Of a stretch of 64,000 nt of DNA, positions 47,809-63,903 are shown in pieces. The notes beneath the pieces were generated by a model that did not search any database, was not told where the DNA came from, and saw only the letters and a list, made by a program, of their open reading frames with translations. The stretch's first letter is position 1, and every line of letters begins with the position of its first letter. Source of the DNA: a virus; IMG/VR virus record IMGVR_UViG_3300007775_000001, positions 32,001 to 96,000 of that record, one strand, 5' to 3'. A program made the translations under genes and the position numbers.

Positions 47809-49287
47809 ATGGTTGCTGCTCTTACCACTGCTCAGGTAGACTCTCTACTCCGTAGTCCGGAAGTAGAAGAACTCTTGCTCAGGAACGACTTGGCGTATTT
47901 CGCTGAGAAGATTCTTGGCATGGAAGTTGTTGCTCATCACAGGAAGTGGTCAGAGCTTACCGCGAAGTACAATCGTCTCTGCATCAACTGTGCTCGTGAC
48001 CATGGGAAGAGCTTCTTTTTTTCTCATGCGTATGTGATCTGGAGAGCCTATTTCAAATGGCTGCCGGACTATGGTGACAGCAAGTCTCTTCCGAAGTTCC
48101 CCATTGGCTACATCTGGTCGAACACAGAACAACAGGCAATTGACCATCTCACGCTGGTTCAGCAAGAGATTCTGAGTAATCCAAAGCTTCGCTTCCTTGT
48201 CCCTCCTGGCAAGGGTGTTGGCGGCATGCCCGCTGGGTGGAGTAAGAAGCGGATGCGGTTGTCCAACGGTGTGAGCATCCGTGCAATCGGTTGGGGTGGT
48301 AGAGTCCGTGGGGCTCATCCTGTCTGGGCGGTCTTCGATGACATCCTGAACGACGAGACGATCTACTCTGAGTTGGTGCGGCGCAAGCAGATCGACTACT
48401 TCTACTCAGCCGCGACACCGTCCGTGGTTCCAGGTGGTCAGATCATCGTTGTGGGTACACCGTTTCATCAAGAAGACCTGTATGCAGAACTGAAGAAGAA
48501 CCCGGAGTATGTCTTCGCTCGTTACCCATCACTCAGCGAAGATGGCAACGAGAAGCCTCTTTGGCCTACGCGGTACAGCAAGGAAATCCTCCTCAGAAAG
48601 CGTCGTGAAGTTGGACAGGTTCGGTTCGCTCGCGAATATATGTGCGTTCCGATTTCGGATGAGTCCAGCTTGTTCCCGGAGCGCATCATTGTGCCGTGCT
48701 TCGAGGAGTCATTCCGAATGCCTACGCATCTGACGGCCGAAGACTTGTCTGAGCTTCAGGTGTATACGGGGGTTGACCTTGCAATGTCTGCTAATGTGGG
48801 AGCGGACTGGACTGTAATCATTACGATTGGGATTGACCGCTACAAGAATATCTGGGTTCTGAACATTCGAAGATTCAAGGGCAAAGGTCTGACTGAGCAG
48901 TTGAAGGCTATCCAGGATGTGTACAACAGCTTCAAGCCCCGCAAGATTTGGATCGAAGACAATAACTTCCAGCGCATCTTCAAGGATGAGTTGGTCAAGA
49001 ATACCGATCTGCCGGTACAGGGGTATACAACACATGCTCGCAAGAAGAACTCGATGGAAGAGGGTGTTCCGTCGATGCAAATCTTGTTTGAGAATCGGAA
49101 GTTTGTTATTGCTCGTGCCACGGCTTATGACCGTGAGATCACGGATCAACTGATCGGTGAGTTGAAATCTTTCTCGTGGATGGACGGTAAGCTTCAGGGT
49201 GTTGGGTCGCATGATGATATGGTAATGGCTCTTTGGATTGCGCTGGAGGCGTCCAGGGAAGGGGAGTTTCAATTTTCATTTGCGTGA
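47809..49287 (+). CDS. terL: terminase large subunit
   Basis: ARDHGKS Walker A; VRGAHP..FDD; VGTP; nuclease GVDLA..HDDMVMA. Confidence 0.95.
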   Translation: MVAALTTAQVDSLLRSPEVEELLLRNDLAYFAEKILGMEVVAHHRKWSELTAKYNRLCINCARDHGKSFFFSHAYVIWRAYFKWLPDYGDSKSLPKFPIGYIWSNTEQQAIDHLTLVQQEILSNPKLRFLVPPGKGVGGMPAGWSKKRMRLSNGVSIRAIGWGGRVRGAHPVWAVFDDILNDETIYSELVRRKQIDYFYSAATPSVVPGGQIIVVGTPFHQEDLYAELKKNPEYVFARYPSLSEDGNEKPLWPTRYSKEILLRKRREVGQVRFAREYMCVPISDESSLFPERIIVPCFEESFRMPTHLTAEDLSELQVYTGVDLAMSANVGADWTVIITIGIDRYKNIWVLNIRRFKGKGLTEQLKAIQDVYNSFKPRKIWIEDNNFQRIFKDELVKNTDLPVQGYTTHARKKNSMEEGVPSMQILFENRKFVIARATAYDREITDQLIGELKSFSWMDGKLQGVGSHDDMVMALWIALEASREGEFQFSFA

Positions 49288-49755: not shown

Positions 49756-50010
49756 ATGGCGCGCGGGAATGTGGTCTGGTTCGATATCCAGAAGGGTTTT
49801 GGATTCATCACAGACGAGGCTCAAGGGGACGATGTATTTGTCCACTACTCGAAGATCGAGGGGCCAGAAGGTGAGTTCAAATATCTCGATGCTGGAGACC
49901 TTGTGGAGTTCGAGCGGTTTGAGGTGGACAGAGGTAATGGCCTGAAGAAACCTCAAGCGAAGAACGTAAAGCTTGTCAGCCGCCGCGAAACCACAAAGGG
50001 CGACAAGTGA
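49756..50010 (+). CDS. cold-shock domain protein
   Basis: WF..KGFGFI (RNP1); DVFVHYS (RNP2). Confidence 0.93.
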
Positions 50011-50702
50011 GATCAGAGATCGTGAAGTGGATTCGGATTGTTGTTTTCAGGACGGTGAAGGGAAAGGGGTTGATCAATCTTGACATTGACAACCTCATCT
50101 CCGCCGGATATCTGGGTTACGCTCAGGCGTTGAAGAACTACGATGAGCGTAAGAAGGTCAAGTTCAAGACCTTTGCTGAGTATCGCATCAAAGGCGCGGT
50201 ACTTGACGAGGTTCGACGTGTGATCGGTGACGAGCGGTGTAAGACGGAAAGGCCAGTTAGGGTCAATGATGTCGATTTCGAGATGATCATTGATCCTCGT
50301 GACTATGGTTGTGAGTTCGAGATCGATTTCGAGAAGTTCATGGATGCGTTGCCGATGACTGTCCGTGAGAAGAACATTCTCCGATCACGCATTCAGGGTA
50401 TGAGCCTGAAGGAGATCGGACAGCAGTTTAGGTTCAGCGAATCCCGTGCTTCTCAGATTCTCTATAGCATCCGTGTGAAGGCTGCACCAACGTTCGAGCG
50501 ATTTTTTGGAATCAAGGTGGTGGTTGCACCAAGATTTCGCAAGTATCGGCGTACCTCGTCCGATAATGGAGTGAGGAGATTCCCGTGGAATCTGGCGTTT
50601 GCCGATATGTGTCGGCGCAACAGGGTGGGGCGAATCATTTCAATTCGGTCGCACCAATTCCCAATCCAACCTCTCCCTTGGCTTAGAGCGAGCGGTCAAT
50701 GA
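50007..50702 (+). CDS. RNA polymerase sigma factor (FliA/WhiG-like)
   Basis: [24 protein letters not shown] (region 2); [14 protein letters not shown] (region 4). Confidence 0.85.
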
Positions 50703-52567
50703 AGCTGACCTTGGACGATTACGCCGCTGTGTTGGATGACGTTGTCAAAGCGGCTTCCAAGAGTTCGGGACGCAAGACATTCGAAGATTTTGAAGAAGAG
50801 ATCGGTAAGTCTCTAACCTTCAATCCGCTTGCTCCCACAGAGATGACTCCTGAAGTTGTTGCGAGAGAGGGTATTTACTCTCCCTATGCACAGGCTCCAG
50901 AAGGCGGGTTTGTACCGCATACCGCTGAGCACTGGATGGGGATGGGCAAAGACCCCGATGACTATCGCAACGTTCACCAGATTTATGAGGAAGCTGGTGC
51001 CAAACAGCCTTCTCTCGATAGCCTGAGACACATGTTCGTGCAAGCTATCGAAGACACTGATCGCGCTGGCCGAAGTTTCTCGTTCCTGTCGCGTTCTATC
51101 AAGCCGACTGAATGTGAAATGATCGTGAAGGGTATTCCTATGCCGTCCAAGGGTGGCGGCATGAAGGATATGGGGATGCCTGTGGGAACGATTCATCGGT
51201 TCAGTGATGGTAAGCAGTATCGGAAAGAAGCTCCTGGCAAGTGGGTTCCGGTGTCAGCCGGTGCGAAGCCGGGTGGAAAGGAAGACGCTACTCAGTCAGG
51301 ACACGTTGAGATCGAGCGACATGCGATGATCACTCGTATTCGACAGGAGATGGATCGTCGTACCAAAGCGGCTGCTGACCAGAAGCAGTTGGAAGGTCGT
51401 ATGAAGCAGACGGCCAAGAAGTATGCGACCAAACAGACTGAAGCGGCTGGGATCAAGTCCCCGGTAGATCAGCTACCGAAAGACAAGGACAAGCCTGGAA
51501 ACTTCGATCTGTTGGAAGGAGCGGACGCGGCGAAGAAGATTTACTTCATCGAGGGCTCGAAGGTCAAGATGGATCACGTTCAACAGTTCTTGAAGGAGTT
51601 CAGTCAGGACTTCAAGGACATCGATTCGAACGGTCAGAATTCGAAGTTCCGTGAAGACATGATGAGCAATGGGGCGTTGTATTATACATCCCGGCTCAAG
51701 GGGCCTGATTCTCTACTGAAGAAGATGCAGAGCAAGTATCTCGACCGCTCTCTTAACACGGTGACTGACGCGATTGGTGCGAGAGCGTTGGCAGGTAGTC
51801 TGGAAGATCAGAAGCGGCTCTTCACGTTCTTCAAGTCTCAGCATGAGTTGGTCGAAGAGGAAGACTTCGCTGAGCAGGGGCGTCCCGATGGATATCGGGC
51901 GATCCATTGTCTGTTCCGGACAAGTTCCGGAAAGATCGGTGAGTTTCAGTTCAAGACGATCAATCAACAGCTTTACTCTGGGTATTTCCATGACACGGTT
52001 TACAAGGGTAGTAAAGCTATTCAGGACGATCCAGAGGTAGCGAAATTTCAGAGAGATGTGTCGGACTATCTGCACAGGCTTGATTCTGGTCAGGAACAGT
52101 TCGATATCAATCGCGCTCCAAAGGCTCCAAAGCAACTTGTGGCTGCGAAGTACAAGGACGAGAAGGGTAAGGAGCAGACGGCTGGAGAGTTTCCTTGGGA
52201 AAACGTTCGGACTAAGAATGTGGGTGACTATCTGTACAAGGCAGATGACGAGTCTCAGAGTGTGAAGTATTTTCTGGTGTTGCGCGATAAGAAAGGCAAC
52301 ACGGTTGGAACCAAGAGCTACAACAGCCTGGAGGCTGCGCAGAAAGAACAGACACGTCTTCTCAATCAGAAGAACTATGGCGATCTTCCTATTGCTCAGG
52401 CTACGAGCGAGAAGGAGTTGTTCGCCACCTTCCATGAGTACAGACCACGGGTCGGCTCACAGGTTGACGATCAGAGCAAAGACAAAAGCCCTGCCAAGTA
52501 CACAAGGGGTTCAAAAACGACCCCTCAGAAGCGGAAATTTGGGAGAGACCAAAATGGCTCACGATGA
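50699..52567 (+). CDS. modular head-region protein with RelA/SpoT synthetase domain
   Basis: RLKGPDSLLKK; DAIGAR; GYRAIH; EFQFKT; HDTVYK. Confidence 0.82.
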   Translation: MKLTLDDYAAVLDDVVKAASKSSGRKTFEDFEEEIGKSLTFNPLAPTEMTPEVVAREGIYSPYAQAPEGGFVPHTAEHWMGMGKDPDDYRNVHQIYEEAGAKQPSLDSLRHMFVQAIEDTDRAGRSFSFLSRSIKPTECEMIVKGIPMPSKGGGMKDMGMPVGTIHRFSDGKQYRKEAPGKWVPVSAGAKPGGKEDATQSGHVEIERHAMITRIRQEMDRRTKAAADQKQLEGRMKQTAKKYATKQTEAAGIKSPVDQLPKDKDKPGNFDLLEGADAAKKIYFIEGSKVKMDHVQQFLKEFSQDFKDIDSNGQNSKFREDMMSNGALYYTSRLKGPDSLLKKMQSKYLDRSLNTVTDAIGARALAGSLEDQKRLFTFFKSQHELVEEEDFAEQGRPDGYRAIHCLFRTSSGKIGEFQFKTINQQLYSGYFHDTVYKGSKAIQDDPEVAKFQRDVSDYLHRLDSGQEQFDINRAPKAPKQLVAAKYKDEKGKEQTAGEFPWENVRTKNVGDYLYKADDESQSVKYFLVLRDKKGNTVGTKSYNSLEAAQKEQTRLLNQKNYGDLPIAQATSEKELFATFHEYRPRVGSQVDDQSKDKSPAKYTRGSKTTPQKRKFGRDQNGSR

Positions 52568-55500
52568 CCTGTTGGCGAAAGCTGGCATTCGGGTCGGCAA
52601 TCCAGCGGAGCGGCGTTTGATCAACGATGAGCCTTCTCATCGATTTGTGGTCAAGGGCTTCAAGAATAGAGGAAGCGTCTCTCGTGCTGGTTCTCAGTCC
52701 AGCCCCCGCGAGAATTTGCTTCGAAGTCTGGGCATTCCGGACGAGGGTGCTCTTGAGAAGGCTACTCTGTACGGGAACGATGGTGATCTGGAGTACGTTC
52801 CTGATACGTACACGGGTCAGGATGTGTATCATCAAGACCCGTACAACGAGGTTCAGGTGACACGTCAGGAAGTGCTCGATACGCATGGTGAGCATTTTCA
52901 CAGCGATATCGATCCAGATGTGGAGCGCATTTTGAGTGAAGTTACCGAAGCGGGAACACACTTCGACTACACTCGTCAGTTCGGTCGTTCGATGGGTGCC
53001 TTCGATGGTGACGATGATGGTGATGACAACACAGAAGGTAAAGAGGAAGAAGAGAAGTCGAAGCTCAAGGCCAAGGATGTCAAGAAAGCTAGAAGAAGTG
53101 GCCCTGGTTCCCGTGGTGGAAGGGTAATTGGTCATACTCGTTCTGGCAAACCGATCTATGACAACAGTGCGAAAAATCACAGTGGATTCACAAAAGAAGA
53201 TCATGCCGATGCTCGTGATCTTCATACCTCTATCCATGAAAAGATGCTCGAAAGAGTGATGCATGGTGGAGAGTTTCCATCTGATTCGGCCATACTGAGC
53301 ACAAAGGCCAAAGATTATCATGCTCGTTTGGCAAAATCTGAATCAGACGATGAAGAAGAAAGCGACGAGGAGCCAGATGATGATGAAGACGATCAGGAGA
53401 AGTCTCTGTCTGGCATTTTGGATGATCTGATCAAGGGAGAGGGTGAAGGTTCTCGTGGTGGCAAAGTGATTGGTCATACATCGAGTGGGAAACCAATCTA
53501 TATCCACGAGCCGAATTTGGGTACTTCTAGTGCTGGTGGTATCCATGGAAAGAATTATAAGGGGTGGAATTGGAAAGATCATGAAGAAGCGTATGCTGCG
53601 CATTCTGCCGCTGCTAATTCTCTCGTACAGAAGCATGGTGGGTATCCAAAAGGTGATGATGCAAAGACTTATGTGCAGCATGCTCACAACAAGGATGCAC
53701 ATTACTTTTGGGCAAAAAAGACTGGTCATCCTGAATTGAACAAAAGCCTGGGAAAGTCTAGTGCCGGGGAGGGTTCCAAGGGTGGTCAGGTGATCGGCCA
53801 TACCCGCTCTGGCAAGCCGATCTATGCTCACGATTCAGCGATCTATGCCCATGGCACAGGCGCTTTCAGTGGGTACAGCAAGGGTGATCACTTTGATGCC
53901 TACACGCGCCATTCAAACGATCTGAAGTACAAACGTGGTCGTAGTGGGAAGAAGAACTTCTTGTCCGCGATGAAGCTCCATTCGCAGGCTTACTACGCTG
54001 CGAAGAGCGAGCGTGATCCAGACCTTCCAGACTTTTTGAAGTCGAAGAGTGGCGAGGGCTCTCGTGGTGGCAAGGTGATTGGTCACACACGGTCTGGCAA
54101 GCCGGTCTATGAGGGTAAGGCGGCGTCTAAGTATTCTGATTTTTCACGTCAGGATCACAAAGATGCTGCTGCCCAACACATGCGTCATTGGCATGATGAT
54201 GACTCAGAGAGTGCGGACGGGAGTGATCAAATTTCGGTCGATCATGATCGATTGTCTTTGACTCCAGAGCAGTTGAAGAATCGTGATGCCAAGCGCCGTG
54301 GTGTTCTTGGCAAAAAGTCTGTTTCTGTTCTGGACGATTTGGTCAAAGCTGTAACTGGCGAGGGCTCCCGTGGTGGTGTGGTTGTGGGTCATACATCGAG
54401 TGGCAAACCCATCTATCAAGGTGAGACTCATTCGACACGGATTCACACTACGACTGGCGAAGAGACTTCCCATGTGAATTCGTACATCCAGCATGCGGGT
54501 GATGAGAAACCGTATGGTGGTGAGAACTACCACGTTTTCTATCAACGCAAGGGTGCTCAAACCCAAGGCGACAATGAGACTGATGCGGATCGGGATTACG
54601 TTGGGTATGTGATCCGCCACAAAGACGAGGGCATATGGTCTGGTCACCCTGAGATCACGAGCATGAGTGCTTACAAGCAGGCGAAGAACTTCAAGACCAG
54701 AGGCGAAGCTGAACACCATATCCTGAGCACCTATAAACGGTATCAGGAAGCGTCGAAGCCGAAAGATCAAAAAGCCGCTAGCGTCCAGGAGGCGAACGAT
54801 CTGTACAAGGCTTTGATGGATATCTCGTTGAACAAAGCCACCGATGCCCAAGAAGACAAGGTGCATCAGGTGATGCGCGAATTCAAAGAAGGCACGCTTC
54901 GTTCGGGGAGCAAGACTGGCCCGAAGGTCAAGAACCGGAAGCAGGCGATTGCCATTGCCATGAATCAGTCTGGGCAGTCGAACAAGTCTGACGATGAGGC
55001 GAGCGATCTTCTCAAGAGCAGAATCTTCCCCATCGGTACAGTTCATACGTTCAGTGATGGCAAGCAGTACAAGAAGGTCGCTAACAACGAGTGGCACCCT
55101 GTTAAGGGAGAAGGCCCACGTCGATATGACTACGCCGCTGCTGTTGACCACAACAGCAAGATCGAGGTTGGTCAACATGTCCGTGTAAATTGGACGGCTG
55201 GGAGTTTCGGTCACTACACGGGCAAGGGCACCGTGACCAAAGTCAATGCCAAATCTGTAGCGGTGGCATTGGATGAACCCGTTGCTGATCAAAGTGGCCT
55301 TGGCGGAAGTGGCTATCCCGCTGGTCGTCGAATTGTTGTTCCACGGGCTGACATGTTCAGTGGTGCAAACTCCAAATGGGCATGGCACAACGGAGTTTTC
55401 CCGGTTCATGGTGAGGGCAAGAAGTCGAGTATCGATGAATTGCTCGATCTTGTGAAAGCTGGCTCATCGAAAGAAGTTGCGCCAACTTCTACACCAACAA

Positions 55501-56039
55501 GAAGGACTGTTCCTTCCGCGCGCAACTCGTTCATCAAAGCGGCTGGCCCTGGAGGAGTCCTGTTCGATTTTGGTCATCTGACCGGGAACCTTGCTGCCGA
55601 CAGATATTCCGAGCTTGCCAATCAGCATGCGGAGCCGCAACAGGCTGCAATTCTGAAGTCTCAGAAAGCTGAGTACGATCAGGCTCTCGTGGAGTATGTC
55701 ACTACTGGTCGTACGAGAGAACAGGATGTTTCTCCACAACAGGGTGCAGATGTTCAGAAGTCAGATGAGCAACATGGTGCTCAAACGGCCGATGTGTCAA
55801 AGCCGGTCTTCATGGGCGATTTTCGGACTCAGTTCGAGAGCAAACAGGCTCGTGTTGGTAGTGAGGTCGTGAAGGCTCAGTCTGAGACCGACCAAGCTGT
55901 GATCGAGATGTTTGGTAAGAACCTGGGTGATGCTCCAACCGATATGACCATGGCTGGGAAGACCCCGGTTGTTCTCGATCTGGCTTCGGGAGCGGCAATC
56001 GACATGCAGAGCGGCGAGCAGATTCAACCTGCTGAGTAA
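52554..56039 (+). CDS. large repeat-containing modular head-region protein
   Basis: Five GxGSRGG.V.GHT.SGKP.Y repeats, DUF6496-like segment, SH3/KOW-like segment; ATG 52554 after GGAG. Confidence 0.8.
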   Translation: MAHDDLLAKAGIRVGNPAERRLINDEPSHRFVVKGFKNRGSVSRAGSQSSPRENLLRSLGIPDEGALEKATLYGNDGDLEYVPDTYTGQDVYHQDPYNEVQVTRQEVLDTHGEHFHSDIDPDVERILSEVTEAGTHFDYTRQFGRSMGAFDGDDDGDDNTEGKEEEEKSKLKAKDVKKARRSGPGSRGGRVIGHTRSGKPIYDNSAKNHSGFTKEDHADARDLHTSIHEKMLERVMHGGEFPSDSAILSTKAKDYHARLAKSESDDEEESDEEPDDDEDDQEKSLSGILDDLIKGEGEGSRGGKVIGHTSSGKPIYIHEPNLGTSSAGGIHGKNYKGWNWKDHEEAYAAHSAAANSLVQKHGGYPKGDDAKTYVQHAHNKDAHYFWAKKTGHPELNKSLGKSSAGEGSKGGQVIGHTRSGKPIYAHDSAIYAHGTGAFSGYSKGDHFDAYTRHSNDLKYKRGRSGKKNFLSAMKLHSQAYYAAKSERDPDLPDFLKSKSGEGSRGGKVIGHTRSGKPVYEGKAASKYSDFSRQDHKDAAAQHMRHWHDDDSESADGSDQISVDHDRLSLTPEQLKNRDAKRRGVLGKKSVSVLDDLVKAVTGEGSRGGVVVGHTSSGKPIYQGETHSTRIHTTTGEETSHVNSYIQHAGDEKPYGGENYHVFYQRKGAQTQGDNETDADRDYVGYVIRHKDEGIWSGHPEITSMSAYKQAKNFKTRGEAEHHILSTYKRYQEASKPKDQKAASVQEANDLYKALMDISLNKATDAQEDKVHQVMREFKEGTLRSGSKTGPKVKNRKQAIAIAMNQSGQSNKSDDEASDLLKSRIFPIGTVHTFSDGKQYKKVANNEWHPVKGEGPRRYDYAAAVDHNSKIEVGQHVRVNWTAGSFGHYTGKGTVTKVNAKSVAVALDEPVADQSGLGGSGYPAGRRIVVPRADMFSGANSKWAWHNGVFPVHGEGKKSSIDELLDLVKAGSSKEVAPTSTPTRRTVPSARNSFIKAAGPGGVLFDFGHLTGNLAADRYSELANQHAEPQQAAILKSQKAEYDQALVEYVTTGRTREQDVSPQQGADVQKSDEQHGAQTADVSKPVFMGDFRTQFESKQARVGSEVVKAQSETDQAVIEMFGKNLGDAPTDMTMAGKTPVVLDLASGAAIDMQSGEQIQPAE

Positions 56040-56041
56040 CC

Positions 56042-57799
56042 ATGGGAATCATTCAGAAAGCTGGTCGATATATCCTGGGCGAAATCGCTGGGATGAGACC
56101 CGATATGGTCAAGGCGGGTCTCATGTCTCCGGATTCGTCTGCCTACGATCCAAAGACATCCCTTGTCGATCCTCTCTCGTTTCAATCGCTCAGTGCATTT
56201 GGGTATCGAGAGAAGTTCAGTCTTCTGGATTACTCCCGGTTGCGGGCGATCAGCTTGAATGATTCGGTGGTTGCTGCTGTGATTCAAACCCGGTTGAATC
56301 AGGTGGCTGGGTTTGCCACGTTGCAGGCCGACAAGCATACGGGTGGTTTCACGATCCGTATGCGAGACAGGGACAAGAAGCCAAACTCTGCTGCTCAAAA
56401 GCGTATTAAGGAATTCCAGGAGTTCATGATCAACTGTGGTGTGCCTGAGCAGTTCGAAGACACACCGGAGCGTAAGCGTCGTGACAATTTCGACACCTTC
56501 TTGCGCAAGTTGACACGGGATTCTTTGACGTATGATCAAGCCAACTTTGAGATAACGCCAAGAAGGAATGGGATGCCGTACGAGTTCGGTGCGGTAGATG
56601 CCTCTACTATTCGGCTCATCCCGGACAAGAAGGAATTGATCGATCAGTTCAACAACGAGCGTGCAGCACAGTATGCTCTTCAGACGATGAAGGATACGAT
56701 CAAGGTTGCTGAGAATTCTGGCAAGGTCTTCAAGCCCCGTCATCCGAAGTATGTCCAGGTGATCAATGGGATCATCAAGCACGACTACGATGAATGGGAG
56801 ATGGCGTTTGGTGTACGCAACCCCCGGACAGATGTAATGTCGTATGGGTATGGATTCAGTGAGATCGAAATGCTGGTGACGATCATCACTGCACACATGA
56901 ATGCGGAGACCTACAACCGGAAGTTCTTCACACAGGGGACAAACGCCAAGGGAATTCTCCACTTCGAGGGTCAGGTTCCGCGTGATCAACTTCAGGAGTT
57001 CCGGCACCAATTCCACATGCAGGCGGCTGGAATCGCCAACTCCTTTAAGACCCCGATCATTGCGACGGCAAAGGAAACTAAGCTTCAGTGGATGGACTTC
57101 CAGAAGTCAAACCGCGAGATGGAATTTGGGCGGTGGTTGGAATACTGCATCAAGGTTGTCTGCTCTGTTTACCAGATCGATCCGATTGAAATCGGATTCG
57201 ACATCTCTCGAATGGGTTCGGGTGCATCACAGGGCGGTGGGTATGGGATGGGTGCCAGTGCTGGTGACCCGACTTCCAAAATTTCGAGTTCTCAGGACAA
57301 GGGACTCAAACCATTGCTGCGCTTCCTCCAATCGCTGATCAATGACTACATCGTTTACCGATTGGATGCGGACTTCGAGTTCGAATTTGTTGGTCTCAAC
57401 GCGGACTCTGATAGCGAAGCTCTGGACAAGATTGGCAAAGAGGTCAAGACATTCAAAACGATCAACGAGGTCAGGGCGGAGCAGGATAGACCTGCTTTGC
57501 CTCCTCTTGATCAGATTGAGTCTCCTGGTGATCTGCTTCTCGATAGCACTCTTCTTACTATTTGGGGACAAGAGAGACAGGCAAAACAACAGCAAGACAT
57601 GATGGCTCAGCAAGGGCAGGACGGTGGTGATGGGAATCCCGTTGGCGAAGATGAGCAGCCTGATTACCAGAACATGAGTGATGAAGACCTTCAGCAACAG
57701 TACAAGAAGTTGCAGGAAGGCGGCGGTGGTGGTGGAAGCCTTTCCCAAGGTGGCGTCAACAAATCGATGCCCCGGTTGACTCGCACACTGAGACTGTGA
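56042..57799 (+). CDS. portal protein
   Basis: RDSLTYDQ..VDASTIR; YGFSEIE..YNRKFF; NREMEF..YQIDPIEIG; SQDKGLKPLL; TINEVR. Confidence 0.93.
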   Translation: MGIIQKAGRYILGEIAGMRPDMVKAGLMSPDSSAYDPKTSLVDPLSFQSLSAFGYREKFSLLDYSRLRAISLNDSVVAAVIQTRLNQVAGFATLQADKHTGGFTIRMRDRDKKPNSAAQKRIKEFQEFMINCGVPEQFEDTPERKRRDNFDTFLRKLTRDSLTYDQANFEITPRRNGMPYEFGAVDASTIRLIPDKKELIDQFNNERAAQYALQTMKDTIKVAENSGKVFKPRHPKYVQVINGIIKHDYDEWEMAFGVRNPRTDVMSYGYGFSEIEMLVTIITAHMNAETYNRKFFTQGTNAKGILHFEGQVPRDQLQEFRHQFHMQAAGIANSFKTPIIATAKETKLQWMDFQKSNREMEFGRWLEYCIKVVCSVYQIDPIEIGFDISRMGSGASQGGGYGMGASAGDPTSKISSSQDKGLKPLLRFLQSLINDYIVYRLDADFEFEFVGLNADSDSEALDKIGKEVKTFKTINEVRAEQDRPALPPLDQIESPGDLLLDSTLLTIWGQERQAKQQQDMMAQQGQDGGDGNPVGEDEQPDYQNMSDEDLQQQYKKLQEGGGGGGSLSQGGVNKSMPRLTRTLRL

Positions 57800-58365
57800 T
57801 GAAGAAAATCATTCGCGATGCATTCTCGTATGTTGAGTACAAGGGGAAGACTGCGCCGCAAGAGCGATGCAGTACTTGCTTCTATGGGACGTTTCCAGGA
57901 AGTAAGTGCTCGTTGTACGAGGCTATCAATGGGTTGATGCCCGAAGCATGGAATCTCGAAGATACCGTGAATCCAAACGGAGCATGCAACGCTTTTACTG
58001 ACAAGGAAGTGACAAAGGCAGTGATTAGACGTGATCCGATTTTTGTGCTGAAGGCTGGTGGCGAGGGTTCTCGTGGTGGCAAGGTGATTGGTCACACATC
58101 GAGTGGAAAGCCGATTTATGGAGATAGTCATTTGAGAGGTACGCGGGAATGGTCTGAGCGTGACCATTTTGAAGCGTATCACGTTCATGGTAAGGCGGAT
58201 AGACCGGGTTCTTCGCTTGAAGACGCTAGACTCCATTCTGCCGCAAGGTCTTATCATCTTAGTGAGGGTAGTAAGGTTGGTGGAATCAAGAATGATGGGC
58301 CACATAAAAGACATCCTTGGTTCACATCAAGCGGTCAACGGAAACGGTTTATGAGCAGATCATGA
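57796..58365 (+). CDS. HiPIP-like 4-Cys domain fused to the GEGSRGG repeat module
   Basis: CSTC..C..VNPNGACNAF then GEGSRGGKVIGHTSSGKPIY. Confidence 0.65.
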   Translation: MMKKIIRDAFSYVEYKGKTAPQERCSTCFYGTFPGSKCSLYEAINGLMPEAWNLEDTVNPNGACNAFTDKEVTKAVIRRDPIFVLKAGGEGSRGGKVIGHTSSGKPIYGDSHLRGTREWSERDHFEAYHVHGKADRPGSSLEDARLHSAARSYHLSEGSKVGGIKNDGPHKRHPWFTSSGQRKRFMSRS

Positions 58366-58589
58366 TCGAAGTCAAGATCAGTGCGGATACTCAAGAGGAG
58401 TTCGATGCCAAACGTGCCGATCTTGCCAAGGCTGTTATCGGCCCGAAGGCTATCACCCCTCGAAAGGCTTATCATCGGTATCAGAACGACTTGCTGGACT
58501 ATGTGAACGCACTATACCTCAAGCGTATAGCGCAAATGAAGCGAGAGATCGATGTTGTGATCCGGCGCGCCCAGGCGCGAATCCAATGA
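58362..58589 (+). CDS. hypothetical protein
   Basis: ATGA coupling. Confidence 0.6.
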   Translation: MIEVKISADTQEEFDAKRADLAKAVIGPKAITPRKAYHRYQNDLLDYVNALYLKRIAQMKREIDVVIRRAQARIQ

Positions 58590-58819
58590 AGATTCTGCTG
58601 ATGATCACTGTGGTGGCGATGTCGGGTGTCAAAGCTCCTGCAATCAGCTTCAAGAGCATGTGTGATGCGATTGATCCTGAAGCTATCACGCTCATCACAA
58701 TTCGGCCTTTCAGGGACGCACAGAATGGGACTGTTATTCCAGGCGTTGTCTACCAGTGTGTGCGGATCACGGAAGGTGAAGAGAAGGGCACCAAACCTCA
58801 AAGGAAGCAGAAGGCATGA
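58586..58819 (+). CDS. small protein with hydrophobic N-terminus
   Basis: ATGA coupling on both sides. Confidence 0.5.
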   Translation: MKILLMITVVAMSGVKAPAISFKSMCDAIDPEAITLITIRPFRDAQNGTVIPGVVYQCVRITEGEEKGTKPQRKQKA

Positions 58820-61800
58820 GCAGTTTCTACGTAGAAACTGAATCTGTTTCCAAGGGTGGTCGAGAGGTTGCTTCCGTTGCGGTGATGAGCGGGTCGAATC
58901 TCTTGATGGGCCGCCGCAAGGATTCTGGCGAGTGGACTTTGCCGGGCGGTGGATTGGAACCGGGCGAGAAGCCCGAAGAAGGGGCCAAGAGGGAGCTTTT
59001 TGAGGAGGCAGGGGTCAGGGTAGGGCAGCTCCGATATCTGGGCTCCAGGCGCGTTAAGGGCGTTCCTGATAACGATCTGATCACGGTGCATGCCTTCCTG
59101 GTGCATCAACATGGGAAGGCAACTGTCCGAAACGATCCTGACAAGGAAGTGAGCCGGTGGTCATGGATCGATGTGAGCAACGGTCTTCCGAAAGCGATTG
59201 AAGATGAACTTCACTCCCCACGGAACGTGGTTCTCATGATGATGGGTATTCAGAAAGAGCCAAAACCGTCCCTGGTGATTCGATCTGACCTGGGGCCTAT
59301 CGACCTATCCAAGATGTATGGAGGAGGGGTTGGAGAGGCTTCTGACAGCGAATTTGGTACCTATTCTGGCGGTGGTGGGAAAAAGCCGGGTGGCCCTGGT
59401 TCTCGCGGTGGAAAGGTGATCGGACGTACACGGTCTGGGAAACCGATCTACGAGAGCGCATCCCATTATGGTCACAACAGCTTCTTTGCGGAAGAGCATC
59501 TTCAGGCTGCTGAAGCGCACAAGCATCATGCAGGGAGTTTGCTTGAACACATGAAGGGCAACCTTCATGGGAATACTTCGAATTTCAAGACGCTGATGGG
59601 CAAGATTGAAGCCCACATGACTGAGGCCGATGAGCATCGGAAGAAAGCTGGAACCGCTCCAAAAGCTCCCCGCAAGAAGGCCGAGCCGGCCAAGAAGGAG
59701 TATCGCTATGCAGCTTCCGTATTCGATGATTCGGATATCATCAAGAGTCTGGAGGCCATAGTTAAGCATGTCGAAAAGCCCGGTTCTCGTGGTGGTCATA
59801 TCATCGCCTGGAGAGATGGCGAACCGATTTATGGAAAGGAGCAGCCAAAAGTTAAACGTAAGGTGGCTAGTGCTACAGTCAAATACACAACAGCATTGAG
59901 TCCTAGTGGGAAGAAAGAAAACGTGGCTGTTCATTTGAATCCATCCGCTGATGATTTGGCTGAACATATTCCAGCCGGTGCAAGAGCGTGGCTTCTGCCG
60001 GGTGGAAATTTGTATGTCATGGACAACAAGAATATTTTGCATCTTTCTGCTATCGAGTCTGTGATGAATTCTGGATTCATCACCAAGCAGCAATTCAGAG
60101 ATATCATCCCGCCAAAGAGTTTCTTGAGTGATACCGATCCTTCTGAGGGTATCATGTTGGAGAGAGTTGGTAATTCCAATATGTTTGTGTTGGGTGAATC
60201 TTATGAAGGCGGTGTTCCGGAGGGTGATGAGCTATCTGACATCAAGGATTCGATCAGAGCTTTCAAGAAAAATTCAAAAGGCGTGATCATCCGGCCAAGT
60301 AGTATTAGAGATTTCAATGTCGAAGACTACTTGCATATGAGCTTCGATCAAGAAGAATTTGATCTGTGGAAGGCGGATGATAAGATGATTTCCACTCCCC
60401 AGAAGGGGATGGTTAAAAAGCATGAACATCTTGTCCGCGTCCCGAAGACACCAAGCCATATGAGCTTTTTTGTGAAGGCTGCTCCAGGAGAAGTCCGCCC
60501 TGGTCACAAGTATTTGCGACGGTACAGACGGAATGATCAGTGGGTATACGTCTATCGCGAGCCAGAAGGTGATACCCGTGAATTGAACGAGGAGGCTATG
60601 TCGCTTCTTCACCATCTTGCGGCGCGTGGTGACGAAGATGCCACGTATCTTCTGAACAACCTGAAAGAGAAAGCGGCTGACGAGGTTCTTGATCGTGAGT
60701 TGAATGGCACGGAACGTCATGATGTTGTGCAGATGATTCGGAACAGTCTCGATCAGAATGTGTTCCGATATTTGAATCAGTATACTACGAGCCCGTTCCA
60801 TCAAACGCTCACACGGAATCGTGTGACGTTGGATTCCGTGATGTCTCAGGTTCAGGGACAGACATTGCGCGGTCTGCTGACAAGTTATCACAACGCCCTG
60901 CGAGATGTGGATCGGGCTCATTCGACATTGCAGATCACGAGTTCTCAGAACACTGATGCTCGCGGTGCGGGTGGTTATGCAAATCTTGCGTACAACAGAG
61001 CCTTGCAGGCGTTGGAGACTCGTACTGCGTTCTTGCCAGCGCGCTATTCCGAAGTCCATCGGAGAGGTACACGGAGCGGTTCGAATGATCTTGAACCGTT
61101 TGTGAACACTCAAGAGATACGAGAAGCCGCTGAGCGCCAAGAGCGAGAGCGTCAAGCTGCCGAAGCTGAACGCGAACGACAAGCCGCTGAAGAACGCGAG
61201 CAGATCATGGGTGAGTATCGCACCAAGATGACCGGTGCGATCATCGATCATCTTGATCCTAGCGTTCATGTTTCTCCTGACAAGATTGCGACCATCCATC
61301 GTGCTCTGAAGAACATGTTCGGTGGCAATGTTCCTACACGGGAACAGTGGCCTTACGACTTTTCACAGTATGGGTACAGGGTCAAGATTTCTGATGTGGC
61401 CGCTGACAACAATACCATCTCGTTCGCACTGAGCGCGACCAACGCTTCTGGAGAGCAAGTCACTCGTTCATGGCGTCGGAATTGGCGGAACAACGGTGGT
61501 CATCCAGCGATCTACAACGCGCTCCTGGAGACCTATCCATCCGCTCGTGGGACTGGCCCTGAGATTGGCGAGTTGATCAACAAGGCTCAGAACAAGTTGA
61601 TGCATGAGACCGATCCTGACCATGGTGTGATTGGAGTCTTCGCTGCAATGACAGTGGGTGGCTACAATTGGGCCAATCAGGGCTTCAGATTTGATCGGGC
61701 AAGTGGTGATCGTGGTGTGGTTTTGATGCAGTTTAGGAACTTCCTGGCTGAGCATGGGATCAGATTGACAGACGAGGAACTGAGTCACTTCAAGGAGCCA

Positions 61801-62685
61801 TGCCATTTTGCCGCTTTCCATGATGGCAAGTTCTACGAGGTGCATACTTCGGACGATCTCGCACTGAAGCCCGATCAGGTTGCTCATGGAACATTGGACG
61901 GGAAACCTGGAGGTAGACCGCTTACTCCTTCTGAGATTAGCGCAGGTCGCACCAATCGAATGCTTGTTCACCTTGGCAAGATGTTTCTCTTGGGCAAGTC
62001 ATGGCACGGTATCTCTAGGGCTTCGGAGCAGAATGACCGCAACGAGGCGTGGCGGTTCTTCCAGATTTATCGTCGCATGAAGGTGGATTCCTGGAAGGTA
62101 CTCAATGACCGATACAAGGCTGCTGTTGAAGCTGTACAGCAGGGCCAGCGCACTATGACTTCAGAGCAGCGAGCGGCTGCGATTTCAAGCTACAACCCGT
62201 ACGTGCGGAGAGGAAGTAGGCGTCGAAGATCGTCAACTATTCGAAGACCGAATCGATTCAGGGATTGGACTCCAACCCAACAGAGAACTTGGATTGATCG
62301 GAATCGCGGTCAGTTGTCGGATGCTCAATACAATTCGGCATGGGAAGTGATGAGAAGTGCGAGACATCGTGTTGACATGGCGAGTCGTGCTCTTCAGACG
62401 TTTGTGAATGATGGTATTGTGACCGCGCCTTCGGCACCTCTCAATGAGATGAACGAGACAGACCTTCGACACTTTTTCCATGGTGAGTATAATTACTCAA
62501 CGCGGACACAGGTTTCGCAAGGTGTCATGAATGAGCTTCGAGCGCATTATGGTGAAGGCGATACAGCAATCTACAATCGCCATTTCCGGGAACTCAGGTT
62601 CTATCAGGACGATTTGATCAATGCTCGTCGTGCTCGTATTGCCGCTGAAGCGCGGCCAGCCGGACAACAAAGAGCAACAGGATAA
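58816..62685 (+). CDS. polyvalent head-region protein: Nudix + repeats + GNAT-like domain
   Basis: Nudix box GGLEPGEKPEEGAKRELFEEAG; two GSRGG repeats; HKYLRR motif; GGYNWANQGF. Confidence 0.8.
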   Translation: MSSFYVETESVSKGGREVASVAVMSGSNLLMGRRKDSGEWTLPGGGLEPGEKPEEGAKRELFEEAGVRVGQLRYLGSRRVKGVPDNDLITVHAFLVHQHGKATVRNDPDKEVSRWSWIDVSNGLPKAIEDELHSPRNVVLMMMGIQKEPKPSLVIRSDLGPIDLSKMYGGGVGEASDSEFGTYSGGGGKKPGGPGSRGGKVIGRTRSGKPIYESASHYGHNSFFAEEHLQAAEAHKHHAGSLLEHMKGNLHGNTSNFKTLMGKIEAHMTEADEHRKKAGTAPKAPRKKAEPAKKEYRYAASVFDDSDIIKSLEAIVKHVEKPGSRGGHIIAWRDGEPIYGKEQPKVKRKVASATVKYTTALSPSGKKENVAVHLNPSADDLAEHIPAGARAWLLPGGNLYVMDNKNILHLSAIESVMNSGFITKQQFRDIIPPKSFLSDTDPSEGIMLERVGNSNMFVLGESYEGGVPEGDELSDIKDSIRAFKKNSKGVIIRPSSIRDFNVEDYLHMSFDQEEFDLWKADDKMISTPQKGMVKKHEHLVRVPKTPSHMSFFVKAAPGEVRPGHKYLRRYRRNDQWVYVYREPEGDTRELNEEAMSLLHHLAARGDEDATYLLNNLKEKAADEVLDRELNGTERHDVVQMIRNSLDQNVFRYLNQYTTSPFHQTLTRNRVTLDSVMSQVQGQTLRGLLTSYHNALRDVDRAHSTLQITSSQNTDARGAGGYANLAYNRALQALETRTAFLPARYSEVHRRGTRSGSNDLEPFVNTQEIREAAERQERERQAAEAERERQAAEEREQIMGEYRTKMTGAIIDHLDPSVHVSPDKIATIHRALKNMFGGNVPTREQWPYDFSQYGYRVKISDVAADNNTISFALSATNASGEQVTRSWRRNWRNNGGHPAIYNALLETYPSARGTGPEIGELINKAQNKLMHETDPDHGVIGVFAAMTVGGYNWANQGFRFDRASGDRGVVLMQFRNFLAEHGIRLTDEELSHFKEPCHFAAFHDGKFYEVHTSDDLALKPDQVAHGTLDGKPGGRPLTPSEISAGRTNRMLVHLGKMFLLGKSWHGISRASEQNDRNEAWRFFQIYRRMKVDSWKVLNDRYKAAVEAVQQGQRTMTSEQRAAAISSYNPYVRRGSRRRRSSTIRRPNRFRDWTPTQQRTWIDRNRGQLSDAQYNSAWEVMRSARHRVDMASRALQTFVNDGIVTAPSAPLNEMNETDLRHFFHGEYNYSTRTQVSQGVMNELRAHYGEGDTAIYNRHFRELRFYQDDLINARRARIAAEARPAGQQRATG
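58821..58840. repeat. dispersed palindrome copy 7
   Basis: CAGTTTCTACGTAGAAACTG within the first codons of the ORF. Confidence 0.9.
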
Positions 62686-62687
62686 TC

Positions 62688-62891
62688 ATGCCAAAAGACA
62701 TCAAGCCAATCGAGTCGGTCAAAGACCGACTCGTTGATGTGAATGACATTGACAGCGAGCTTGACATCGATCCGTATTTCGGTGAACAGGTCGCTGACGC
62801 GGCGCGGGAATCGTTCAAGGAGTCCAATCCTGGTCTGTATGCTGTACTGACCAAATACCGGAATCATGGCACTGACAGCAAGGGAACTTGA
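62688..62891 (+). CDS. small acidic protein
   Basis: AGGA RBS; 67 aa directly after the polyvalent protein. Confidence 0.6.
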   Translation: MPKDIKPIESVKDRLVDVNDIDSELDIDPYFGEQVADAARESFKESNPGLYAVLTKYRNHGTDSKGT

Positions 62892-63903
62892 GGAGATTCG
62901 CGATATCGTCCGTAGGCATTATCTTGCTCTGACGCATGATGCCACGGGTAACATTTCGCTGACTCCAGCGGAACTTGCTGAGCTTCGCCGTGCTGGTCTG
63001 ATCACTGGTCGTGAACCGGTGGTTATGCAGAATGCGTACGAGTTCGGCAAGGTGGCCGTTGCTGTGGGGCCGATTGCGGCCAGAGCCATGACGGTTGAAC
63101 AAGTGCGTCTGGCGATTTCGAAAATGAAGCCTCTGACTGAAGTCGAGAGGGCCTCATTGGATTTCGCTCGTGCAAGTGCTGGGCAGTACATCAAGGGCAT
63201 TATGGACATGACCCTGAAGGATGCCACTACTTCTGCAATGCGTGCTTCTGGTGCGGCATTGAGGGCTGTTCAGGAGGGTGTTTCAGAGGCAGTGGCAGAC
63301 CGCAAGACGATCAGCGAGCTTCGCACTGAATTGTTTAACACCATCGACAACCGGTCTCGTGACTGGACACGTATCGCTCACACAGAACTGACCAACGCGA
63401 TCCAGAACGGTATCTACAATGAGATCAGGGATACCTCTCCGGCGGGGGCCGATCAGGTGGTGTTCAAGAGTCCGAATCCAGATGCCTGCAAATACTGCAA
63501 GGCACTCTATCTAAAGCCTGATGGAATTACACCACGGGTATTCAAGCTGAGAGACCTGGAGCCGTCAAACTTCGGCAGACGAGCGCGTGATTGGAAGCCT
63601 GTTGTTGGTGCAACTCATCCATGGTGCAACTGCCAGATTCACATCGTTCCGGATGGGTACGACTTTGTCACGAGGCCAGTGGTTCAAGAACAGTTTGACG
63701 AGGGCGGGAAGACGTACAAGCAGGGTCAACGATTGAGCGAGACAGAGTATCGTACACTTCGGTCTTCGCATGCCGACAAGATAGGGAAAGGAGCGATTCT
63801 TGAGTTCACTGGTACGACGGCTGCACCAGAGATCATGAGAAGCATGTTGGACAGTATCCCTATCCATTCGGTTGACGAGGAAGAACCGATCTGCGAGTGC
63901 TGA
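62866..63903 (+). CDS. MuF/SPP1-gp7-like head morphogenesis (minor capsid) protein
   Basis: RIAHTE..ACKYC..HPWCNC. Confidence 0.85.
   Translation: MALTARELEEIRDIVRRHYLALTHDATGNISLTPAELAELRRAGLITGREPVVMQNAYEFGKVAVAVGPIAARAMTVEQVRLAISKMKPLTEVERASLDFARASAGQYIKGIMDMTLKDATTSAMRASGAALRAVQEGVSEAVADRKTISELRTELFNTIDNRSRDWTRIAHTELTNAIQNGIYNEIRDTSPAGADQVVFKSPNPDACKYCKALYLKPDGITPRVFKLRDLEPSNFGRRARDWKPVVGATHPWCNCQIHIVPDGYDFVTRPVVQEQFDEGGKTYKQGQRLSETEYRTLRSSHADKIGKGAILEFTGTTAAPEIMRSMLDSIPIHSVDEEEPICEC

Follow-up and report, generated by a model that had tools for sequence, protein, structure and literature searches.

We describe a repeated unit of about 90 residues in a 64,000-nt stretch of viral DNA (the window), which spans positions 32001-96000 of one 114,950-bp virus record (IMGVR_UViG_3300007775_000001); all coordinates refer to the window unless marked G000. 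The unit occurs in three genes of the head region, here called B, D and E. To judge by profile and structure searches, it is a previously unannotated domain family of more than 2,000 clusters without an entry in Pfam, NCBIfam, PHROGs or the PDB. Units recur beside head genes in related phages and almost every copy follows a probable prohead-protease site. We consider it rather likely that the unit is a module of protease-processed internal head (cargo) polyproteins in an uncultured, SPO1-like (Herelleviridae-related) clade of myophages.

A six-frame motif scan finds the canonical 20-residue start of the unit, G[EP]GS[RK]GG.(V/I)(I/V)G(H/R)T.SGKP(I/V)Y, at 53100, 53442, 53766, 54051, 54357, 58060 and 59392, i.e., five times in gene B, once in gene D and once in gene E, where one degenerate copy is also found. 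The eight copies in three genes that a preliminary description of the window had reported are thus all recovered (seven canonical, one degenerate), and there is no further copy in the whole 114,950-bp genome. Bearer genes and copies are the following, with arrows marking predicted protease cuts.

52554-56039, plus strand: gene B, 1161 aa, polyprotein-like; five units, a DUF6496 module and a G..W module, no enzyme domain.
53100-53360, plus strand: unit 1, motif at 53100-53159 and then the helical hairpin; VKK↓A upstream, Lys codon 53085-53087.
53442-53735, plus strand: unit 2, LDDLIK↓GEGEGSRGG, Lys codon 53433-53435.
53766-54035, plus strand: unit 3, ELNK↓SLGK↓SSAGEGSKGG, Lys codons 53742-53744 and 53754-53756.
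54051-54320, plus strand: unit 4, PDFLK↓SKSGEGSRGG, Lys codon 54039-54041.
54357-54416, plus strand: unit 5, the 20-residue motif alone; LDDLVK↓AVTGEGSRGG, Lys codon 54345-54347.
57796-58365, plus strand: gene D, 189 aa; Cys-containing N-terminal part, then unit 6.
58060-58362, plus strand: unit 6 (gene D), preceded by FVLK↓AGG, Lys codon 58051-58053.
58816-62685, plus strand: gene E, 1289 aa; NUDIX domain, unit 7, degenerate copy 8, then about 900 aa without a match.
59392-59673, plus strand: unit 7 (gene E).
59779-59832, plus strand: degenerate copy 8 (gene E), PGSRGGHIIAWRDGEPIY.

A helix of the form [FWY]xxx[DE]Hx[DEQ]AxxxH follows exactly the six copies for which it had been listed; the copies at 54357 and 59779 are without it. 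The preliminary description had also taken synonymous codon variation as a sign of selection on the peptide. When the seven canonical copies are compared codon by codon (21 pairs x 20 codons), 184 comparisons are identical, 175 synonymous and 61 non-synonymous, and the mean identity is 75% on the nucleotide and 85% on the amino acid level. The copies are therefore not recent DNA duplicates, which the synonymous divergence rules out, and selection acts on the peptide as had been claimed. A chance origin of the repeated motif is not tenable.

Residue numbering and conservation are based on an alignment of 64 units, the first row of which is unit 1, the unit modelled by AlphaFold2. Residues G6, G9, G10, G14, T16, G19 and Y23 are invariant, and E5, S7, I13, H15, S18, K20, P21, H38, A41, H45 and H77 are conserved in at least 90% of the rows. 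Five conserved histidines are located in GHT, in DH, seven residues beyond DH and at two positions of helix 2; about 70% of the units show an extra His seven residues past H77. While the 20-residue start is near-invariant, the remainder diverges to about 25% identity among relatives. The composition is rich in His (9.4%), free of Cys (0%) and basic, with a median isoelectric point (pI) of 9.0.

Given only 15 rows, AlphaFold2 reaches a predicted local distance difference test score (pLDDT) of 60, whereas the 64-unit alignment results in a confident fold (pLDDT 82.6, predicted template modelling score 0.69). Together with the recurrence in 2,092 clusters reported below, this bears out the small repeated domain that had been suspected. 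The model shows strands at 12-15 and 21-23 as well as helices at 35-57 and 64-87. That is, the unit is predicted to be a mini-domain of about 90 residues, made of a short basic beta-hairpin (KVIGHT-xSG-KPIY) and a two-helix hairpin against which it packs. The GxGSRGG arm is part of the low-confidence first ten residues (mean pLDDT 53). Its conservation is not explained by the modelled fold, and the arm therefore looks like a flexible, linear recognition element.

We also compared the model with the His-Me finger/HNH fold. His15 ends strand 1 and D37, H38 and D40 are placed on helix 1, i.e., the topology is loosely compatible, with a linker of 11 residues. No such fold is among the Foldseek or VIA matches and no Pfam HNH model matches. 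A similarity to KOW/SH3 or ribbon-helix-helix domains is likewise without fold or profile support.

The hidden Markov model survey of metagenomic proteins (1.84 billion representatives, clusters at 50% identity) reveals a large family: the number of clusters is 2,092 at E≤1e-3 and still 1,261 at E≤1e-10, and single proteins contain a maximum of 8 units. A word-based search with gene D returned 18 metagenomic proteins that share the near-invariant 20-mer and the His helix. None of the sequence and structure searches links the unit to a characterised domain. In genes B, D and E, it has no match in Pfam (E≤0.1), PHROGs (E≤0.01) or NCBIfam (E≤0.1); outside the units, these genes match just DUF6496, NUDIX and one PHROG of unknown function. 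The profile search of PDB sequences gives chance matches only (E 0.6-2), Foldseek yields nothing at E≤1e-3 against PDB and BFVD, and all ESM Atlas scores are below 0.8. Using VIA-align against 48,161 chains, we obtained ribosomal protein L29 and other generic helical hairpins (Z about 7), which were rated non-specific. A literature search on the motif returned no relevant paper.

Among 50,697 GenBank phages, neither DNA search nor tblastn (E≤1e-3) produced a match, and the genomes of 185,579 prokaryote species contain three, all on 4-109-kb contigs of metagenome-assembled genomes labelled Bacteroidota, a phylum to which the hosts may belong. This distribution places the family in uncultured and apparently virulent phages. 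The only look-alike of the hairpin, RVVGQTQAGEPIY, is weak (tblastn E 4) and was observed in Planktothrix phage Pag-Yong1 (OL906435.1, L050, about 2304-2390), within a 'large polyvalent protein' of 2,773 aa. It was not counted as a family member and may be a distant cousin or a chance match.

The unit is linked to head genes in other phages as well. In 41/42 IMG/VR loci, homologues of the large terminase (TerL), the portal, the protease, the major capsid protein (MCP, the major head protein) or other conserved head-module genes are found within 10 kb of the bearers. Such neighbours comprise terminase, sigma, RelA, portal, the 345-aa gene, protease, major head protein and the genes following it; a portal homologue is present in 24 of the 42 loci. 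The slots of the bearer genes vary: some are found on either side of the portal, others ahead of the protease or downstream of the gene that succeeds the head protein. The PHROGs tally of 102 neighbour genes is led by portal, a 'tail fibre' family, virion structural protein, major head protein and head maturation protease, and also includes terminase. This 'tail fibre' family matches the genome's own 260-aa gene.

In two loci, the protease open reading frame (ORF) itself bears the units: in L023, the protease domain covers 5-169 (E 4.9e-15) with units at 241 and 471, and in L034 it covers 16-174 with a unit at 314 and the Lys at 310. Since the protease acts inside the procapsid, these ORFs are the strongest single pointer to an internal location. 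Within their proteins, units start at a median residue of 62, with many being internal or tandem, and are depleted only in the last fifth (16/293). Many relatives consist of a leader and a unit without payload. Five complete or nearly complete related genomes show 1, 1, 4, 1 and 4 profile matches, which are not copy numbers; one of these genomes has its match in a payload-free protein of 234 aa.

For 264/288 units (92%; 151 family proteins), the motif [LIVFMY]xK[AGS] is found at most 14 residues upstream, in a stretch that is predicted to be disordered. In 248 occurrences, the Lys is located at -3 to -6 from the G of GSRGG, compared to about 16 expected from the overall motif density. For the genome's 163 ORFs, we compared counts of [LIVFM]xK[AGS] with those of composition-preserving shuffles. 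Enrichment is highest in three ORFs, with 10 motifs against 1.6 expected for the scaffold, 18 against 5.0 for gene B and 10 against 1.6 for the protease (each p≤0.0025). Across the loci, the motif density per 100 aa amounts to 2.76 for protease ORFs, 1.37 for unit-bearing ORFs and 0.63 for other ORFs.

The genome's protease matches phrog_1028 (E 1.6e-47) and is 39% identical (E 3e-44) to gp32 of CP-51, which in turn matches PF04586 Peptidase_S78; in Pfam it has no direct match of its own. By this similarity, the phage encodes a prohead protease of the HK97 family (S78). In HK97, the S78 prototype, the capsid protein is cut at K103/S104 (PMC10275583). The MCPs of the clade show (E/D)LxKA(L/M)xAG near residue 35 of the N-terminus (13/13), followed by a block that recurs in the proteases. 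CP-51 has the same arrangement (ALNK↓ALSAGH; its scaffold contains 13 motifs of this kind), and the pattern is also present in an A511-like Listeria phage (EDALK↓SFTTGYG), phage K (EDVVK↓SFQTGYG) and LP-125. In an A511-like Cps, ALK↓S is at residue 24; a 1995 paper on A511 Cps is said to report the removal of the N-terminal ~23 residues. The units are thus predicted to carry a site of the S78 protease, i.e., Lys at P1 and a small residue at P1', which is also what the MCP shows at its maturation position. A precursor resembling ribosomally synthesised and post-translationally modified peptides was rejected, as there is no conserved cut after the 20-mer.

As a side observation, the C-terminal part of the protease and the N-terminus of the major head protein share the block K↓(A/S)LSAGYAT..P......GGALR.E.LD, which is kept across the clade, CP-51, LP-125 and phage K. 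It looks like a mimicry of the capsid N-arm by the protease. The two genes that carry it are located outside the window.

G000 98950-99852 (L043:3950-4849): protease.
G000 100943-102418 (L043:5943-7415): major head protein.

In the reading we favour, the precursors, i.e., polyprotein B, the small protein D and the NUDIX protein E, would enter the procapsid. There, the S78 prohead protease would cut at hydrophobic-x-Lys↓Ala/Gly/Ser, 0-3 residues before each GEGSRGG. Gene B's product would be cut into pieces of about 100 residues, each starting with (A/G/S)x0-2GEGSRGG, and that of gene D would be split into the Cys-containing N-terminal piece and the unit. Each unit, alone or with a downstream payload, would then begin with the conserved arm. 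The freed basic (median pI 9), histidine-rich units would stay in the head with the DNA and would probably be ejected with it. Hairpin and arm could form the docking surface that holds the cargo on a conserved internal partner (capsid inner surface, scaffold or DNA), with the histidines holding metal or forming a pH-sensitive core. Our data show that the domain is real, how large its family is, that it is linked to head genes, and where the predicted sites lie and how enriched they are; packaging, cleavage, metal binding and the partner are the parts of this scheme that we infer. For the unit's own role, we prefer a docking/retention domain for a conserved internal partner.

Several observations weigh against this scheme. 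The cut motif is short and about 8% of the units do not have it; the first unit of gene E shows no such site directly upstream. The metagenome proteins P0004 and P0013 present GLKVDAG instead of hydrophobic-x-K-[AGS] before the unit, a linker that may be served by a protease of other specificity. What suggests metal binding is the pattern of histidines. When the canonical 55-residue unit is compared with the GenBank phages by tblastn at E≤10, no canonical copy is found, i.e., there is none in cultured phages. Units are no N-terminal leaders (median start 62, many internal) and are thus unlike a removable T4-type targeting sequence. Finally, there are the payload-free relatives made of leader and unit, and the 1-4 profile matches (not copy numbers) per complete genome.

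Because the unit follows the predicted cut, starts at a median residue of 62, and has payload-free relatives and low match counts, it is not a simple removable tag. The predicted upstream site, the payload-free proteins and the single-match genomes make it doubtful that the unit is purely a tag, and equally that it is a bulk structural component in DNA packing. Bulk DNA condensation in particular is weakened by complete related genomes with a single profile match (again matches, not copy numbers).

A more far-reaching form of the docking idea can be put forward only tentatively. Here, the unit would be a portable, self-sufficient address/retention domain for the interior of SPO1-like capsids, comparable to the encapsulin cargo peptide but folded and switched by metal or pH. 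A protein behind leader, Lys site and unit would be loaded, trimmed and injected, and the GEGSRGG arm would be both the new N-terminus and the key recognition element.

It is unlikely, in our assessment, that the unit is first of all an internal DNA-binding protein. In this case, head loading would be achieved by other means and the freed basic units would bind the packaged genome, with the hairpin and the RGG-like arm in a groove, and travel with it at ejection, e.g., to protect or pilot the DNA. The median pI of 9.0 and the conserved Arg/Lys in hairpin and arm fit such a role, as do the existence of stand-alone unit proteins and the make-up of gene B from small modules without an enzyme. However, the unit resembles no known DNA-binding fold or family, and the single profile match of some complete genomes (not a copy number) would hardly suffice to neutralise the charge of the DNA. 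This role also leaves unexplained why units are fused to the protease.

We give little credence to a host-directed effector module, in which the near-invariant hairpin would, once injected, bind to some conserved molecule of the host and the head context would be a matter of delivery only. In favour of it, 20 residues hardly vary although identity falls to about 25% in the remainder, and units are fused to or placed beside effector-type domains (zeta toxin, NUDIX, SAM lyase, RelA/SpoT). Yet an inhibitor would not be expected in five tandem copies within one protein, the hosts are probably diverse, and the fusion to a prohead protease that is internal to the procapsid points to an internal partner. 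Equally improbable is that nothing is cut, with hydrophobic-x-Lys-[AGS] just capping the domain at its N-terminus and the bearers acting as uncut multi-domain virion or assembly proteins: the cut sites are predictions and the motif is short in proteins rich in Lys, Ala and Gly, but its enrichment survives composition-preserving shuffles that also pick out scaffold and protease, the MCPs of the clade and of Herelleviridae have the same motif where they are matured, and its stretch is predicted to be disordered.

The system is probably a variant of a known theme, i.e., of head-packaged and protease-trimmed proteins, with a domain that is real, widespread and unannotated. As for the internal proteins of T4 (IPI-III, Alt), unrelated payloads are encoded among head genes, with small basic internal proteins alongside enzymes, and prohead loading, trimming by the head protease and injection with the DNA are proposed here. 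The capsid-targeting tag of T4 is N-terminal, about 10 residues long, poorly conserved and cut off at L/I-x-E by gp21. In contrast, the conserved element described here is a folded domain of about 90 residues that is often internal or tandem and follows the predicted cut instead of preceding it. The protease, too, differs, being a member of the HK97 (S78) family that is predicted to cut after Lys. That is, a short N-terminal removable peptide of the T4 type is not what we find (median start 62, downstream of the predicted cut).

Encapsulin cargo-loading peptides offer a second comparison, as a short conserved element would address diverse cargo, ferritin-like proteins included, into an HK97-fold shell; one relative here is fused to ferritin. 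Encapsulin cargo peptides are short, unstructured and terminal, usually C-terminal. The units differ in being folded, depleted from the last fifth of the proteins and linked to predicted protease sites, i.e., a folded unit of about 90 residues with 16/293 occurrences in that last fifth is no short terminal peptide.

With the processing of the HK97 delta-domain, the system shares a protease of the same family and a cut, here a predicted one, between Lys and Ser/Ala/Gly. The HK97 capsid protein has a helix-turn-strand directly ahead of K103/S104 that docks beneath the capsomer and adds a strand to the sheet of the MCP P-domain (PMC10275583), which by analogy is a plausible, workable model for the docking of a hairpin-plus-helix unit. 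Unlike the unit, the HK97 element belongs to the capsid protein itself and is degraded, and there is no sequence similarity.

The polyvalent proteins described by Iyer et al. (2017, PMC5512222) are large multi-domain effector proteins encoded near portal/terminase genes, with RelA/SpoT being a typical partner. Such an architecture is found here: gene E combines NUDIX, units and about 900 aa near the portal, and relatives carry LPD1, zeta toxin, SAM lyase and AAA. Through the zeta toxin, NUDIX and LPD1 payloads, the family is therefore tied to the polyvalent, injected-effector theme (PMC5512222). What sets it apart from the polyvalent proteins as described there is that protease sites segment the proteins and that one small module is repeated in tandem; with the search terms used, no domain of the unit's description was found in that paper. 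No Pfam LPD, PBECR or MuF model matches the unit.

If the favoured reading holds, a large uncultured branch of SPO1-like phages builds and processes head-internal proteins and enzyme cargos with one domain plus the site of the capsid protease. It would provide a sequence signature for injected phage proteins in metagenomes, with NUDIX, zeta-toxin-like kinases, S-adenosylmethionine (SAM) lyase and RelA/SpoT as candidates for anti-defence or host takeover. It would also define a substrate rule for HK97-family proteases of large myophages and possibly offer a handle for loading foreign proteins into phage heads.

Regarding the phage itself, the portal is about 40% identical to the portals of the Bacillus phages CP-51 and SPO1, and major head protein and portal show about 40% identity to their counterparts in CP-51, YungSlug and SPO1 (also Bacillus phages). 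This similarity places the genome, to judge by these two proteins, as an uncultured, SPO1-like, distant relative of Herelleviridae. The head region starts with the large terminase and continues past the window end with head maturation protease, scaffold, major head protein, neck/tail genes and tail sheath; every gene listed for it is encoded on the plus strand. Besides the bearer genes given above, it contains the following features.

47809-49287, plus strand: large terminase, first of the ordered head-region genes.
Between large terminase and sigma-70-like factor, plus strand: cold-shock-like gene.
50007-50702, plus strand: sigma-70-like factor.
50699-52567, plus strand: gene A, RelA/SpoT-domain protein (PF04607, E 3.4e-11); leader with predicted cut ↓A, G..W module, no unit.
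51185-51256, plus strand: paralogue of the G..W module in gene A.
54852-54965, plus strand: DUF6496 module in gene B (PF20106, E 8.9e-9).
55032-55103, plus strand: G..W module in gene B, IGTVHTFSDGKQYKKVANNEWHPV, preceded by SDLLK↓S.
56042-57799, plus strand: portal protein (PF04860 and phrog_12).
Between gene D and gene E, plus strand: two small ORFs.
58870-59184, plus strand: NUDIX domain of gene E, residues 19-123 (PF00293, E 2e-19).
62866-63903, plus strand: conserved 345-aa gene, downstream of gene E.

The order with a sigma-70-like factor and a RelA/SpoT protein between terminase and portal is conserved (49756-52567; also in L002, L004 and L039). This is an unusual place for regulators and suggests that both are virion cargo, too; gene A would thus be a neighbouring candidate cargo without a unit. 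Its G..W module and that of gene B have the pattern G-T-(I/V)-H-x-F-S-D-G-K-Q-Y-x-K...W-x-P-V in common. The module is also found in the RelA-gene homologues of L002, L004 and L039 as well as in L029, each time right after hydrophobic-x-K-[AGS], and could serve this cargo system as an alternative module. The DUF6496 module was observed in 7 other unit-bearing proteins, often with a Lys site after it. In gene D, the N-terminal part (57796-58050) arranges its Cys residues in a C-x2-C ... C ... C pattern; an ESM Atlas structural neighbour of this part, with HIPIP in 12% of its members, reaches a template modelling score of just 0.31.

We also surveyed the payloads of 49 long relatives with units. 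Zeta toxin, NUDIX and LPD1 were each found in 3 members and LAGLIDADG in 2, while DUF2213, ferritin, DUF6582, SAM lyase and AAA occur in 1 member each. Homing endonuclease families (PHROGs 314, 7168, 19446 and 655; Pfam LAGLIDADG_3) recur in or beside the cargo genes, both in the IMG/VR loci and in P0033.

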